Shown here: in pieces, positions 1-11,264 of the stretch | How the letters are laid out: every line of letters begins with the position of its first letter | Numbering within the stretch: the stretch's first letter is position 1 | Assembly: GCA_963727895.1 (NCBI GenBank) | Contig: CAVSHT010000009.1 | Location: 288,001-352,000, forward strand | Length of the DNA stretch: 64,000 nucleotides | Direction of reading: 5' to 3' | From: an uncultured Methanosarcinaceae archaeon | Lineage (GTDB): Archaea; Halobacteriota; Methanosarcinia; Methanosarcinales; Methanosarcinaceae | Made by a program: the position numbers and the translations under genes | The notes under the pieces: model-generated | What the model saw: only the letters and a program-made list of their open reading frames with translations | Databases searched by the model: none | What the model was told of the DNA's origin: nothing

Positions 1-238
1 TTGCGGGGCTCACAGACCTGTCAAAAAGAGAAAGGTAAGCAATGTAGTTGTCAGGGATGCCATCGAAGAAGGTGGAACCTACGAACTCCGGATCGATGCA
101 GTTGGATCCAAAGGTGACGGGATAGCTAAAATAGATAAGTACACGGTTTTCGTGCCCGGAGCCTCAAAAGGCGACGTGGTCAAAGTAAAAATAAAGAAAA
201 TCAGTGGAAACCTCGCTTTCTCAGAGAGAGCAGCCTGA
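1..238 (+). CDS. eif2b: Translation initiation factor 2 subunit beta, C-terminal part (end of Zn ribbon + TRAM domain), 5' truncated by window edge
   Basis: Frame 2 reads [11 protein letters not shown]...[58 protein letters not shown], the TRAM-fused aIF2-beta C-terminus; TGA at 236-238. Confidence 0.85.
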
Positions 239-407: not shown

Positions 408-492
408 CTTTGCGCCACATTCTGTTTTTGATTAAGCTTTTTTTAAATATTTTTGATTAGGCCGATATAATAAAGGGCTCTGTGAGGAATAA

Positions 493-1734
493 ATGACTTC
501 TGAAAAAAAGGATATACCGGAAGTTCCATTAAGAAAAATTTCATTAAAAGATTCTCAAACAACGGGAAAAAATATAGAAATTATCTCAATCCCAGGACTG
601 GCAGTAAATCTTCGGCAAGCAGGAGATGTCCTGGAGCTTACAGCAAACGGAACACTGAGAGTAGCTTTTAACCCCATCTTGAGAATGATAAATTCTCGTC
701 TGATGGAGGAAAAGCCAGCTCTTGTACTGGAAGATAAAGTCATTGCTTCGGCCTGGCTCCCCCCAATACCAAGTCCGGTTTTTAAGCGCCTGATTTTTGC
801 AGAAATACAGATTGCTCTTGGAAAATCTATTCCTGAAACTGTATCTATTGAACTTACCCGACAGAACAGTTCTAGATATCAACCCGGGACAATTGCAGAA
901 GAGCTGGATACGGCCATTATAAAAAAAATTATTGATGAAGCTCTTGACTCTGGCACTTTAATCATCTCATTTACTGAAAACGATCCTCTACTGAGAGAAG
1001 AGGTTTTTGATTTAATCAAGTACGTGGACAAGAAACGTACTATAGTAAACTGTTCCACATGGGGAACGGACTTTTCAAAAGAAACTGCCCTTCGCTTGAA
1101 AGAAACTGGGCTTCACTCTCTGATGGTTGGAATTTATTCAACCGATCCTGAAAAACATGACGCTGCCCGAAAGTCCGAAGGAGCTTATGAAAGAGCCATT
1201 TCTGCAATGAAAATTGCACTTGAAGCCGGAATTACGGTTGTAATGACAACACACACTTCTCCTTCAAACATACAGGAACTTCCTGCTCTCTATTCTCTTG
1301 CATCTGAACTTGGAGTACACGAATTTTCAGTATGGGAAGCAATGCCTAAAAACAGAAACGAGCCTGCAATCACTAACGAAGATAGAAAAAGCATCCTTGA
1401 GATGTACCATAGAATAAATAAAAATCCAGAAGGCCCTCGAATGTTTGCAAACACTTATTTTGAAGGTCAGATGCTGGGTGCAATGGAAGGTAGACGCTGG
1501 ATGCATATAACGGCAGACGGAGACATAAAAGCTGGTCCTTATCCGCCTTTCAGTTTTGGGAATATAAAAGAAGAATCTTTAAAAGAAGCCTGGCAGAAAA
1601 TCAGAAGTTATCCTTATTTCCAGAAGCAGAAAAAATTGAGTCCAATGCATGACCCGGAATTTTTGGATTTCGTTGACAGAATTCCGGCAGGAGCAAAATT
1701 GCCTTATCCTTTTGAAAAAGTTTGCGAAAAATAA
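493..1734 (+). CDS. Radical SAM/SPASM(twitch)-fold protein lacking Fe-S cysteines
   Basis: PETVSIELTR, ELDT..IKKIIDEA, DPLLR, PEKHDAARKSEGAYERA and HITADGDIK.GPY.PFSFGNIKEESLKEAW are radical SAM/SPASM scaffold motifs, but CxxxCxxC is absent. Confidence 0.75.
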   Translation: MTSEKKDIPEVPLRKISLKDSQTTGKNIEIISIPGLAVNLRQAGDVLELTANGTLRVAFNPILRMINSRLMEEKPALVLEDKVIASAWLPPIPSPVFKRLIFAEIQIALGKSIPETVSIELTRQNSSRYQPGTIAEELDTAIIKKIIDEALDSGTLIISFTENDPLLREEVFDLIKYVDKKRTIVNCSTWGTDFSKETALRLKETGLHSLMVGIYSTDPEKHDAARKSEGAYERAISAMKIALEAGITVVMTTHTSPSNIQELPALYSLASELGVHEFSVWEAMPKNRNEPAITNEDRKSILEMYHRINKNPEGPRMFANTYFEGQMLGAMEGRRWMHITADGDIKAGPYPPFSFGNIKEESLKEAWQKIRSYPYFQKQKKLSPMHDPEFLDFVDRIPAGAKLPYPFEKVCEK

Positions 1735-2001: not shown

Positions 2002-3399
2002 ATGACTAATAAACTTGACCCGTGGAGCTCAAGCGAAATTAATGACTATTCGAAGTTATTTGAAGAATTCGGGATTTCTCCTTTTGATAAAGTCCTTCCG
2101 GAAATCCCTTCTCCACACATGTATATGCGGAGAAAAGTTATTTTCGGACATCGTGACTATGAACAGATTGTAGAGGCTATGCGCACAGGTGCTCCTTTTT
2201 CAGTTATGGACGGTTTTATGCCTTCGGGGAAGGTTCATTTCGGGCACAAGATGGTTATGGACCAGATAATCTGGCACCAGCAAATGGGAGCATCGGCTTT
2301 TGTAGGGATTGCTGACAGGGAAGCTTTTTCTGTACGCGGTTTTTCCTGGCAGAAATGCAAGGAAATTGGAGTAGAAGAATATATATTAAGCCTTATTGCT
2401 TTTGGTTTCAAGCCCGATGGCCTTATTTACTTCCAGTCAGGATGCGAAAGCGTCAAAGACCTGGCATTTGAACTCGGGGTCAAAGTAAATTTCTCAGAAC
2501 TGAGTGCAATCTATGGATTTTCGGGAGAGACAAACCTTTCCCATATGATCAGTGTAGCAACCCAGGCTGCAGACATTCTCCAGCCTCAGCTCGAAGAATT
2601 TGGAGGTCCAAAACCAGTCGTAGTTCCTGTTGGCCCGGATCAGGACCCTCATCTCCGTCTTACGAGAGGGCTTGCAGGCAAGATGAATATGTTCAGGATA
2701 GAAGAACGGGAAGACACAAAAACAGGCAGAAAATACTTGAGTGTCCGGGGAAAAGCCGCTGAAAAAGGTGCTCTCCAGGAACTTAAAAAACGTATTCCTG
2801 GAAAGGTAAAGCTCCATGAAGAACACCTGGATATTTTTGGACTTTCAATCAACGAGTACTTCCAGAATTTAAGTGTGGAAGAAAGAAACTACTTCCAAAA
2901 AATATGTTCGTCTAGCGATCCACAGGAAATTACAAAGAAAATAGTAGAAGAAACTGTAAAGGAAGTGGCAGCTGAATTCGATGGTTACGCCTTTATTCCT
3001 CCTGCATCTACATATCATCGCTTTATGAGCGGACTACAGGGAGGAAAAATGTCGAGCAGCGTTCCTGACAGCCATATTGCTCTTACTGACGATCCAAAAG
3101 ATGGGGCAAAAAAGGTAAAAAAAGCAAAGACTGGCGGATGTATAACCCTTGAAGAGCAGAAGAAACTGGGTGGAAAACCCGACGAATGCTCGGTTTTCGA
3201 ACTTATGCTTTTCCATCTGGTAGAAAATGATGACGAACTGCTGGAAATAAGAGAGGAATGTGTCTGTGGAACCAGAACATGTGGCTCGTGCAAACAGCTT
3301 GCAGCCGAAAAGATGTACGAGTTCCTCAAAGACCATCAGGAGAAGAGGGAGCTTGCAAGGGAAAAGCTCGATGAGTATAATATAATTTACAAAAAGTAA
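2002..3399 (+). CDS. trpS: Tryptophan--tRNA ligase
   Basis: [12 protein letters not shown] (HIGH-like), [23 protein letters not shown] motifs. Confidence 0.97.
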
Positions 3400-3496: not shown

Positions 3497-4978
3497 ATGA
3501 GTGTTCAGGAAAACCTCACAATCAATGAAAAAAAAGTTTTGCTTGCTCTTGAAACACTTGGGTCTGCAGCTCCAGAAAGCCTGGAAGAAAAATCAGGACT
3601 GCAGATAGATGCGGCAATGCAGGCAGCTTTTCTGCTCGAGGAAAAAGGATTGGTTTCAGTCTCTGAAAAGGTACTGGAACGCTATTCCCTTACAAAGGAA
3701 GGAGAAGAATACATAAAAAAAGGGCTTCCAGAACGTCAGATTATTGACTCCCTGAAAGTTCCTACCTCAGTTGAAGAACTGAGAAATCATTTTTCTCCGC
3801 AAATGGTAGGAATTGCAACCGGTTGGCTCGTAAAAAAAGGATGGGCAAAAGTTGAAAACGGTGTAATGGTACCTTCCGGAAATATGAGTACAGGAAAAGA
3901 CGAAGACACTCTTAAAGCTTTCACAGGCAGCAAAGCAAAAACTCTTGAAGAACTCAGATCTGACGAAAAAACAATAAAAGATCTGCTCAAGCGCAAAATT
4001 ATCACAAAACATGCAGAAAAGTTCAGAACTGTTTCCATAACCGATTCAGGAAATGCACTTGCATCTCAAGGGCTTGTTCTTGAAGAGGAAATTGCTCAGC
4101 TTACTCCCGATTTATTGAAAAGCGGAGAGTGGAAAGGGAAAAAGTTCAGGCCTTACCGCCTCGATATTACTCCAAAACCTCTTTATGGAGTTAAAATACA
4201 TCCTTACAGACGCCTTATAGAACAGATGCGTCAGATCTTTCTTGAGATGGGCTTTACTGAGATTAAAGGAGGAATTATCCAGAGTTCGTTCTGGAATTTC
4301 GATGCTCTTTTCCAGCCTCAGGATCATCCGGCAAGGGATATGCAGGATACTTTTCACCTGGATAGCACCTGTCAGCTTCCTGAAGAATACTACGAAAAGG
4401 TAGCTTCAATGCATGAGTGCGGAGGAGATATTGATTCCTGTGGCTGGGGAGGAGTTTGGGACAAAGAACTTTCAAGACGTAATGTGCTTAGAACCCATAC
4501 AACCTCAATTACTGTCAAATACCTTGCCGATAACCCTGAACCTCCTGTAAAAGCTTTCTGCATTGATAGGGCTTACCGCAGAGAAACAATTGATCCTACT
4601 CATACCCCAGAATTCGAGCAGCTAGAAGGTGTTGTAATGGATAAGAACATGTCCTTTGCCGACCTGATTGGATTACTGGCAGAGTTCTACCACAGGATGG
4701 GGTTCGAAGAAGTCCGTTTCCGTCCTGGCTATTTCCCATACACTGAACCAAGCGTGGAACCCGAAGTTTATGTGGAAGGTCTTGGATGGGTTGAGCTTGG
4801 AGGTGCCGGTGTTTTTAGAAGAGAAGTTAGTGAACCTCTTGGGATTAAAGAACCTGTCCTTGCATGGGGGCTTGGAGTCAGCAGACTTGCCATGCTGAAA
4901 CTTGGGCTCAAAGACCTCAGACTCCTGTATCAGTCTGACATTGACTGGCTCAGGAAAAGCGAAGTTTGCAGAACCTAA
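3497..4978 (+). CDS. pheS: Phenylalanine--tRNA ligase alpha subunit
   Basis: [46 protein letters not shown] motifs. Confidence 0.97.
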
Positions 4979-9830: not shown

Positions 9831-9891
9831 AGGATATCTATTTCCTGCCATTAAATAAATAAATTACGCAAATATATAAGAAGAAATACAA

Positions 9892-9935
9892 AAAAGTCAA
9901 GATATCAGTAATCAAAAGTCAAGGTATCAGTAATC
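9892..9935 (+). repeat. Direct tandem duplication of 22 bp (AAAAGTCAAGRTATCAGTAATC x2)
   Basis: Directly visible. Confidence 0.8.
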
Positions 9936-10039
9936 AAATATTATTAGTTTCAGAGTTTTATGAAAAATAGGAAAGACTAATAAGAATTTGTAGAAAGAAA
10001 ATTGTTAGTGAAAGTGTATGCAATGTTAATATTAAATTT

Positions 10040-10254
10040 GGTATTGGTAAACAAAAATAGATATATATGCTTATAACATATATTTCTTCATGAATTGTCC
10101 AAGATGTAAGAGTGCCAGTCACAAAAAGAATGGTATAGTTGGTGGGCGTCAACGGTACAAATGCTCTGATTGTGACTGGAACTATTGCATTTTGGGCAGT
10201 TCATGAAGAAATATATGTTATAAGCATATATATCTATTTTTGTTTACCAATACC
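10040..10254. mobile_element. Fold-back IS1 derivative: two left ends joined in inverted orientation (MITE-like)
   Basis: About 55-bp perfect inverted repeat (IRL plus leader) with transposase 5' sequence on both arms, joined at TTGTG; no TSD. Confidence 0.85.
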
Positions 10255-10556
10255 AAATTATAAAATCCAATTCTTCTAGCAAGTTCATTCACATCCGTGT
10301 CATCAAAAGCTACAATTACTATATTTAGATGATCATCATAAAAAATTATGCATCCTGAATGCATTTCGTATCTATCGATTTTTATTCTTTGCAATTGTTT
10401 ATAATCTGGATTGTTGTTTATTTTGAGAAAATATTGATATAAGTCTATTGATTGAGTGCTCCAGTCACGAAATCTATTTTTTTCAAGGTGATCTCGTAGT
10501 TTTTCAAGCCATCTCGTATTGTGAAATTCCACGATTCTCATAATATCACTGTTCAA
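10218..10556 (-). CDS. Hypothetical protein, 3' end truncated by the IS1 end
   Basis: ORF reads into the IS terminus at 10254. Confidence 0.45.
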   Translation of the reverse strand: MNSDIMRIVEFHNTRWLEKLRDHLEKNRFRDWSTQSIDLYQYFLKINNNPDYKQLQRIKIDRYEMHSGCIIFYDDHLNIVIVAFDDTDVNELARRIGFYNLVLVNKNRYICL

Positions 10557-10646
10557 CTATTAAATTAGTGTATTAAACATATCGGGCTTTAAAAATCTGT
10601 TTTTTGCTAATAACCTTCTTAAACAAAATAAATCAGGTAATTTAAA

Positions 10647-10664
10647 TAGACCAGTCTATATATT
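10647..10664 (-). promoter_or_regulatory. LmrA/YxaF-type operator box
   Basis: AATATATAGACTGGTCTA on the minus strand, with a near-palindromic TAGACCAGTCTA core. Confidence 0.7.
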
Positions 10665-10691
10665 ACTATTCAAAAAATATAAAGATTTAAG

Positions 10692-11264
10692 TTATTTATT
10701 ATTCAATAATATCGGAATTTTTTCAGCAGCAGCTATCAGCATGGTATTATCATTCCGAATCAAAGATATCGTAATTGCACCTTCTATCATTAATTGAAGA
10801 ATTAGGCTAATTTCTGTTGCTTTTTCTGATGAAAACCCACTATTAATTAATTTCTGAGAATAGACATCTGTCCACAGATCATATGCTTCAACACAAGTTT
10901 TTCGTAAAGACTCACTAATAGTGACCGTTTCTAAGGCCAGCAAACTTATAGAAAAACAATTCTCTTGATCTTTATCATAGAATTTCCGTGCTAAATCCAG
11001 AATAAACTCCTTGATGGCTTGAACTGGGTCGTTATTTTTTGCTAATTCTTCTTCTATGTTGTGTTGAATTCGATCTCCCATCAATTTTATAGTAGCTGCT
11101 ACTAATTCTTCCTTCCCATTTGGAAAATGATAATACAAAGATCCTTTTGGTGTTGCACTTCCTTTAATAATTTCATTTAACCCCGTAGCATGATAACCAT
11201 TTTTTTGGAATAAAAAAGCAGCCGTATTAAGGATTTTTTCACGTGTATTCATTTTGGATCCCAT
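10692..11264 (-). CDS. TetR/AcrR family regulator, LmrA/YxaF-like
   Basis: TREKIL.TAA.LFQKNGYHATGLNEII..SATPKGSLYYHFPNGKEEL; C-terminal LALET..ISESLR, MIEGAI. Confidence 0.9.
   Translation of the reverse strand: MGSKMNTREKILNTAAFLFQKNGYHATGLNEIIKGSATPKGSLYYHFPNGKEELVAATIKLMGDRIQHNIEEELAKNNDPVQAIKEFILDLARKFYDKDQENCFSISLLALETVTISESLRKTCVEAYDLWTDVYSQKLINSGFSSEKATEISLILQLMIEGAITISLIRNDNTMLIAAAEKIPILLNNK

Follow-up and report, generated by a model that had tools for sequence, protein, structure and literature searches.

The window analyzed here comprises 64,000 nucleotides from the genome of an uncultured Methanosarcinaceae archaeon (contig CAVSHT010000009.1, positions 288,001 to 352,000). Close to its start it carries gene X, an open reading frame (ORF) of 413 amino acids (aa) whose product is built like a radical S-adenosylmethionine (SAM) enzyme with a twitch or SPASM C-terminal part, and has no Cys at any of the six positions of the iron-sulfur (Fe-S) ligands. 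Genes in this state are called Cys-free below, and those with all six Cys intact. The features of X are the following, with model confidence given as the predicted local distance difference test (pLDDT).

493..1734, + strand: gene X, unbroken 413-aa ORF, Cys-free orthologue of a radical-SAM/twitch enzyme
568..828, + strand: N-terminal domain (about residues 26-112), three strands and two helices, with an invariant WLPPIP...F.RL segment, common to both paralogues
829..1428, + strand: partial (beta/alpha)6 radical-SAM barrel (about residues 113-312)
862..885, + strand: QNSSRYQP, starting at residue 124, remnant of the CxxxCxxC cluster loop, pLDDT <50
976..987, + strand: ENDP, starting at residue 162, position of the SAM motif, EGDP in intact orthologues and GGE in paralogues
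1429..1692, + strand: twitch/SPASM-like C-terminal part without its Cys (about residues 313-400)
1477..1497, + strand: GAMEGRR, starting at residue 329, first auxiliary-cluster Cys replaced by Ala (residue 330)
1528..1542, + strand: KAGPY, starting at residue 346, second auxiliary-cluster Cys replaced by Gly (residue 348)
1636..1653, + strand: LSPMHD, starting at residue 382, third auxiliary-cluster Cys replaced by Ser (residue 383)

An initial sequence-only reading had described X as an intact radical-SAM protein stripped of its Fe-S cysteines, and the unbroken ORF, the two Cys left in the whole protein (residues 187 and 411) and the five motifs quoted there were all located as claimed. In an alignment with two Cys-bearing paralogues and AhbD from the same genome, these motifs occupied the columns of CxxxCxxC, of GGE and of the three auxiliary-cluster Cys. 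At the positions that mark an active radical-SAM enzyme, N...Y..G within QNSSRYQPG stood in place of CxxxCxxC and ENDP in place of a GGE-type motif, and in the SPASM part A330, G348, and S383 were found where 11 of 11 outgroup orthologues have Cys. The proposed change of the SAM motif from GGEP to ENDP was right in its outcome and wrong in its starting point, as intact orthologues have EGDP and the novelty in Methanosarcina is the exchange of G for N alone. Judged from its sequence, X is incapable of radical-SAM chemistry because the ligands for either [4Fe-4S] cluster are gone, the cluster loop is shortened and the SAM motif is altered.

The scaffold itself was confirmed as a radical-SAM barrel with a twitch/SPASM C-terminal part by Pfam, by an AlphaFold model and by structural matches. 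The Pfam models Radical_SAM (PF04055; 54.9 bits, cut-off 29.5, E 1.6e-14, residues 135-263) and SPASM (PF13186; 23.2 bits, cut-off 21.5, residues 333-377) both matched above their cut-offs, and in the AlphaFold model (pLDDT 77.9, predicted template modelling score 0.81) both the barrel and the twitch-like region at the C-terminus were retained; pLDDT fell below 50 in a single internal stretch, the former cluster loop at residues 124-133. The closest solved folds were SkfB (Z 21.8, 281 residues aligned), PqqE (Z 20.7), BlsE (Z 20.0), and SuiB (Z 19.9); the alignments with these four proteins, all of which bind Fe-S clusters, unlike X, covered 250-294 residues at 14-17% identity and left the N-terminal domain of X uncovered. 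A search of the ESM Atlas with X returned generic radical-SAM/SPASM clusters only. The N-terminal domain folded alone with pLDDT 76.4, and no fold could be assigned to it among 48,161 PDB representatives (best Z 4.5), nor did Pfam match any of four N-terminal pieces even at E 10. The idea that it is a peptide-binding domain like PqqD, a RiPP recognition element, was dropped as unsupported on the same structural and Pfam results. No RNA-binding domain was found in X.

The loss of the ligands is shared by the close relatives of X. None of the six Cys was present in 119 of the 120 closest homologues (71-100% identical), with a single Cys in the remaining one (P0010), and 119 of the 120 had END at the SAM motif; nearly all of those bearing a source name belong to Methanosarcina. 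Among 118 more distant homologues (300-480 aa), 106 keep all six Cys, the remaining 12 mostly having gaps or truncations in the columns concerned. The absence of Cys in X is thus no matter of chance, because 106 of the 118 distant homologues keep six and 119 of the 120 closest keep none. The protein family was present in 151/151 genomes of the window's family, usually with three matches per genome, and within the window's genus, the window's genome and 33 of the 34 others gave a match at the level of X; the remaining one, G134 (97% complete), gave matches at the level of the paralogues only. No genome of the genus gave more than three family matches, which leaves no spare intact copy of X in the genus.

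In the 50 loci read around the best matches, the gene of translation initiation factor aIF2-beta adjoins X in 45 and the tryptophanyl-tRNA synthetase gene trpS in 42; the compared X genes are therefore positional orthologues. The Cys are missing from all 30 loci of the window's genus, from three of genera g2 and g13, and from eight of genera g5, g11, and g12, and the loss thus extends beyond one strain. The window's genus, g2 and g13 combine it with ENDP and a loop in which three residues of the intact orthologues are missing, whereas g5, g11, and g12 are Cys-free but keep EGDP. All six Cys and EGDP are kept in nine genera (g4, g6-g10, and g14-g16), and a tenth, g3, keeps the three auxiliary Cys, the N-terminal part being absent from the extracted sequence. 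Named representatives are Methanococcoides sp. AM1 (P0121) with an intact orthologue and Methanolapillus ohkumae (P0122) with a Cys-free one of the g5 pattern. The intact orthologues (P0121, 53% identical to X; locus L128, 9837-11129) agree with X in orthogroup, as judged by tree and gene order, in length, in the N-terminal domain, in an EGDP-type region and in most invariant residues, and differ in keeping CxxxCxxC and the three auxiliary Cys, of which X has none, with its loop three residues shorter and G163 replaced by N. In the window's clade the six ligand positions hold N/S, Y/F, G/E, A, G/S, and S/T/A and vary between species. The ORF of X is intact in all 30 loci read from the genus, across which X is 71-88% identical, similar to the adjacent TrpS.

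The direction of the change was read from families outside the window's own. X-type genes of six further families in the phylum keep the pattern CCC/EGD/CCC in 11/11 cases, those of ANME-2-like families (best matches), named after the anaerobic methanotrophic archaea, keep it too, and Methanothrix-type genes also keep all six Cys. Because X-type genes of outside families keep the six Cys, the intact state of X is ancestral and the loss derived. In a maximum-likelihood tree the X orthologues formed one clade against the two paralogues (support 100), and the Cys-free genes fell into two long-stemmed groups (stems 0.38 and 0.84; intact group 0.14). In this tree a single change of state can account for the loss, the uniting branch having a support of only 74. 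Both Cys-free clades have the derived W190, where 11/11 outgroups have P190, and in a tree of the paralogue PAR2 one g5 genome grouped with g1 and g13 (support 83). These sequence relationships are consistent with a single loss in the two clades, which is a simpler reading than two losses. The exchange G163N (EGDP to ENDP) is restricted to the Methanosarcina-type clade, and the SAM motif therefore decayed after the clusters.

Selection on X was measured as pairwise Nei-Gojobori ratios of nonsynonymous to synonymous substitution rates (dN/dS), given as medians, with dS near 1 and pairs that are not independent. In the window's genus the median for X was 0.112 (range 0.063-0.257, 431 usable of 435 pairs), far below 1, and that of the adjacent TrpS 0.066. 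Intact X in four other genera gave 0.050, 0.041, 0.073, and 0.052, compared to 0.041, 0.029, 0.074, and 0.048 for TrpS in the same genera, the TrpS value of g8 including codons of PheS-alpha; other Cys-free groups gave 0.136, 0.142, and 0.077. An apparent fusion of TrpS and PheS in g8 proved to be an artefact, as translation showed a stop codon between the two genes. Constraint on Cys-free X is thus about halved yet strong.

The positions at which change was tolerated were equally confined. With ancestrally fixed positions defined as those conserved in ≥90% of intact family members and with the same residue in ≥80% of outgroups (n = 86), 73 are conserved in the Methanosarcina-type clade and 70 in the second Cys-free clade; the 13 that differ in the first of these include the six Cys and G163. 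Between the Cys-free and the intact group 19 fixed positions differ, 17 of them outside the variable N-terminus, and 132 are the same. On these alignments the loss is surgical, with the ligands removed and nearly all else kept, and X corresponds to the evolutionary part of the definition of a pseudoenzyme, cofactor residues being gone and purifying selection retained. Three outcomes had been named beforehand as speaking against the sequence-only reading, namely strain-specific decay, a dN/dS near 1 and a fold other than radical SAM; each was looked for and none of them refuted it. Its proposal that X is selected for a role free of Fe-S clusters is well supported by a loss that is not strain specific, by the dN/dS of 0.112 and by the kept fold.

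The function of the ancestral enzyme was approached through the relatives of X and their neighbors. The window's genome contains two Cys-bearing paralogues, PAR2 (L002, 1510-2688) beside a geranylfarnesyl diphosphate (GFPP) synthase and PAR3 (L003, 1414-2574) beside a UbiA-type prenyltransferase and a reductase similar to geranylgeranyl reductase (GGR), and X is 36% identical to each over the full length, N-terminal domain and twitch-like part included. Both paralogues have canonical CxxxCxxC, GGE and auxiliary Cys and lie in prenyl operons, and X is without those Cys. One likely operon (L063, 7008-9205, contig 12) consists of the GFPP synthase gene followed by PAR2, and the other (L064, 5490-8834, contig 1) of UbiA, a divergent GGR-family flavoprotein and then PAR3. 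The polyprenyl synthase preceding PAR2 scored 597 bits on NF040627 (GFPS_Meth), the cut-off being 600. Each of the two arrangements was kept in 8/8 family genomes examined, with gaps of tens of bases. A predicted complex of X with the GFPS-linked paralogue scored 0.00, which is no answer and counts neither for nor against binding. Two papers link methanophenazine to the GFPP synthase MM_0789/MA0606 and describe the remaining pathway as undeciphered (PMC3017947, PMC8546582); UbiA-type genes appear in two other sources as proposals only (PMC6315138; 2022 preprint).

The distribution of the family was followed in the order with the GFPS-linked paralogue as query and in the phylum with an intact X orthologue, and mostly three matches per genome were obtained. 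In the order, matches were found in families f1 (33/33), f2 (20/20), and f3 (27/27), and the GFPS-linked query found nothing in f4 (0/33), f5 (0/1), and f6 (0/6); the phylum sample added f7 and five further small families. Named X-type records come from ANME-2/Methanocomedens, Methanothrix/Methanotrichaceae, Candidatus Methanohalarchaeum, and several metagenome-assembled genomes labelled Methanocellales or UBA148. In the distant lineages X-type genes directly adjoin a paralogue in 14/14 loci, in 13 of them the GFPS-linked type, and in six distant loci X and the two paralogues are accompanied by a fourth radical-SAM gene, which has no SPASM part, by the GGR-like and UbiA genes, and by a gene for a protein of binding-protein fold, seven genes in all. 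Five of these six form one contiguous block of about 7.6 kb. The representative feature is listed here.

L128, 9837-17546 (G242 contig 1): seven-gene cluster, first gene X-type (9837-11129); also in L130, L132, L133, L134, L138, and L141

The UbiA of the seven-gene cluster is very divergent, and the binding-protein-fold gene is NMT1/THI5-like. An orthologue of the fourth radical-SAM gene, 54% identical, is present in the window's genome, and all four radical-SAM genes are thus represented there. The NMT1/THI5-like gene, considered as a partner that might have disappeared together with the Cys of X, was not found in that genome, which is 84% complete, and as a query in the family it gave only weak matches at 20-29% identity to generic binding proteins (140/151 genomes, every genus). 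As shown by gene neighborhood only, the X orthogroup belongs with PAR2, PAR3, the fourth radical-SAM gene, the GGR-like gene, UbiA, and the C25 prenyl-diphosphate synthase, and the gene content of the seven-gene cluster makes it a candidate pathway for a prenylated, methanophenazine-like cofactor.

Several further observations concern these operons. A tRNA-guanine transglycosylase gene lies just upstream of the UbiA/GGR-like/PAR3 operon (L064), and in one locus (L114, G028 contig 1, about 279610-280743) the UbiA-linked radical-SAM paralogue has one in-frame TGA. An extra radical-SAM gene stands divergently upstream of the GFPP synthase operon in six non-Methanosarcina genera (L101, 1317-2411; L100, L102-L105); read in L101, it looks AhbD-like by the start of its sequence and is taken as unrelated to X. 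It was not found in the 4 kb upstream of the operon in two Methanosarcina-type loci (L106, L107).

Comparison with known systems placed X outside the curated families. None of the NCBIfam families was reached, and the best-scoring ones were AhbD, AhbC, and NirJ, which have the SPASM/twitch architecture in common with X (TIGR04545, AhbD, 103.9 bits, cut-off 500; TIGR04546, AhbC, 60.9 bits; NirJ1, 59.8 bits; NirJ2, 92 bits; cut-offs 500-650 over the set). The true AhbD of the window's genome is a different gene (L004, 633 bits). AhbA/B-like genes are present there, too, and no match above the AhbC cut-off (TIGR04546) was found in this 84% complete genome, where an assembly gap may be responsible. 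Family TIGR04347, a 'pseudo-SAM/SPASM protein' with the suffix Halo, is likewise radical-SAM/SPASM-like and 'pseudo', the likeness being one of family name alone. On this model X scored 64.1 bits (cut-off 525), below its own intact paralogue (106.7) and AhbD (193), and X is therefore not a member of that family and an independent case.

An analogy for the gene set is the futalosine (Mqn) menaquinone cluster, in which several radical-SAM enzymes, a UbiA-type prenyltransferase, and a binding-protein-fold protein serve a prenylated redox cofactor. The UbiA protein of the gene set described above scored 39-51 bits on the MqnP models, below their cut-offs of 375-430, and its radical-SAM genes were not identified as MqnC or MqnE in this analysis. 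'Pseudo' radical-SAM-like proteins are already known as annotation families, as TIGR04347 illustrates. New in the present case are the inactivation inside an orthogroup, the survival of intact positional orthologues, the surgical nature of the change, and the link to an uncharacterized cofactor gene set. Literature searches found no paper describing Cys-free X or radical-SAM genes in methanophenazine biosynthesis; the Methanococcus enzyme dealt with in PMC13692751 is a different one, not X.

In the window itself X is surrounded by genes of translation, as the sequence-only reading had stated.

2..238, + strand: 3' end of the aIF2-beta gene, C-terminal TRAM domain (Pfam E 7.2e-14), conserved neighbor outside the system
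442..471, + strand: AT-rich promoter-like site TTTAAA...TATAAT, about 25 nucleotides (nt) upstream of the ATG of X, possibly a promoter of its own, by pattern match only
2002..3399, + strand: TrpS, conserved neighbor, closely spaced with X in Cys-bearing genera
3497..4978: PheS-alpha, neighbor after TrpS

The TRAM domain of aIF2-beta is covered by the NCBIfam IF-2-beta model PRK12336 (positions 126-202 of 203), and it seems normal for the family. The C-terminal part of TrpS contains the Cys motif C-x23-C-x-C-x4-C-x2-C (window 3181-3294, residues 394-431), which resembles the Fe-S-binding motif reported for the TrpRS of Thermotoga maritima.

Taken together, X is probably a catalytically dead radical-SAM/twitch descendant kept as a non-catalytic binding or scaffold remnant of a prenylated-cofactor pathway. 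The gene set would make a prenylated cofactor of the membrane, with methanophenazine or a near analogue as the likeliest product; X of Methanosarcina would no longer catalyze its ancestral step and would persist because it still binds the ancestral intermediate or partner proteins, serving as a scaffold or as a subunit that presents the substrate. Methanophenazine was characterized in Methanosarcina itself, and its synthesis therefore does not require the radical step of X. Either that step is dispensable for methanophenazine, or the carrier differs between genera. A bolder version, which seems rather unlikely as a whole, sees the three paralogues and the fourth radical-SAM protein as a multi-subunit synthase for the head group or tailoring of a methanophenazine-type carrier, in which Methanosarcina dropped one radical step, so that its carrier would differ chemically from that of Methanolobus, Methanococcoides, ANME-2, or Methanothrix, and dead X would be an obligatory structural or substrate-presenting partner of the active paralogues.

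Some findings weigh against a binding remnant of such a pathway. The methanophenazine assignment of the gene set is inferred from neighborhood and taxon distribution only, and a close GFPS homologue, present in f1 (33/33) and f3 (22/27), was found in 0/20 genomes of f2 (E 1e-60), though the paralogues occur there in 20/20. X lies apart from the other pathway genes in Methanosarcinaceae, ANME-2, and Methanothrix-type loci. The radical step being dispensable for methanophenazine, X could have moved to an unrelated role. The dN/dS of X is roughly doubled in the Cys-free clades relative to intact orthologues, so some constraint has been lost. In several Cys-bearing genera X ends only 17-130 nt before trpS (trpS-pheS), which could suggest a role linked to translation.

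The last of these points bears on the possibility that X is an RNA- or synthetase-binding factor acting with aIF2-beta, TrpRS, and PheRS-alpha, its link to the prenyl cluster being ancestral only. The order IF2-beta, X, TrpS, PheS-alpha is kept across Methanosarcinaceae genera, and with such short gaps X and trpS may be co-transcribed in several Cys-bearing ones. However, the window's genus has gaps of ≥255 nt on both sides of X, TrpS adjacency is lost in the second Cys-free clade, and the 65 loci of ANME-2 type and Methanothrix type show a translation neighbor (IF2-beta) in just one locus, with no IF2-beta, TrpS, or PheS neighbor seen in the ANME-2-like loci, whose flanks are short. Moreover, an RNA-binding domain was not detected in X, and its N-terminal domain is common to the prenyl-operon paralogues. 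A translation factor is thus quite improbable, and of the 'translation gene cluster' proposed from the sequence, the location and a gene order conserved across the family stand, but the functional linkage of X elsewhere is to radical-SAM and prenyl genes; the translation neighborhood is probably incidental, a conserved position rather than a shared function. Somewhat less improbable, and still unlikely, is a gain of new catalysis by X that needs neither cluster nor SAM, for instance as a hydrolase, isomerase, or lyase acting on the ancestral substrate or one related to it. Strong purifying selection with 73 of 86 ancestral positions kept, the clade-fixed new residues W190, N163, S188, G213, and P351, the gained Cys187, and the replaced loop TRQNSSRYPPGT, fairly conserved within the genus, would all suit an enzyme; the 17 real fixed differences between the Cys-free and the intact group are few for a new active site, no new catalytic-looking motif is recognizable, and no Pfam or NCBIfam family outside radical SAM/SPASM gave a match.

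There are two further alternatives for X. It might still hold a metal centre or cluster through non-Cys or partner-donated ligands and so work as a redox or radical enzyme. In the second Cys-free clade, two of the positions that once held auxiliary Cys are indeed occupied by fixed Asp and His (pattern A/D/H), which could be metal ligands. In the window's clade, however, the residues at the six positions, listed above, are poor ligands and variable between species, and the cluster loop is three residues shorter, which leaves this alternative very improbable. Least probable of all is a functionless, decaying gene that is not yet broken. The doubled dN/dS and the missing X-level match in G134, 1 of 34 other genomes of the genus, would fit such a decay, but ORFs intact in 30/30 loci of the genus, a dN/dS of 0.11, an identity within the genus like that of TrpS and 85% of ancestral invariant positions kept do not, and the selection data already contradict it. 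A binding or scaffold remnant is the reading retained for X.

Public records call X a 'radical SAM protein' or assign it to the 'MoaA/NifB/PqqE family', and the Methanosarcina X cannot be a radical-SAM enzyme. Methanosarcina is a genus of genetic model methanogens, and the clear polarity together with the mostly ligand-directed loss offers a clean natural experiment on a radical-SAM scaffold without clusters. In papers from 2010 to 2022, the methanophenazine pathway is described as undeciphered beyond the prenyl-diphosphate synthase step tied to MM_0789, and the gene set of X is a concrete candidate for it. A dead X in Methanosarcina shows which genes can be catalytic there when the pathway is reconstituted, and it predicts either a difference in carrier chemistry between genera or a purely structural subunit.

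Assembled metatranscriptome contigs were compared with the window as well. No contig covered about 1170-1837, and contigs from runs X1, X2, and X3 contained pieces 95-99% alike over parts of 502-1026, though such contigs do not show transcription. One X2 contig (628 nt, 7 differences) spans 17-644 and thereby runs from the end of aIF2-beta across the 255-nt spacer into the first part of X, either as a read-through transcript or as DNA in the library.

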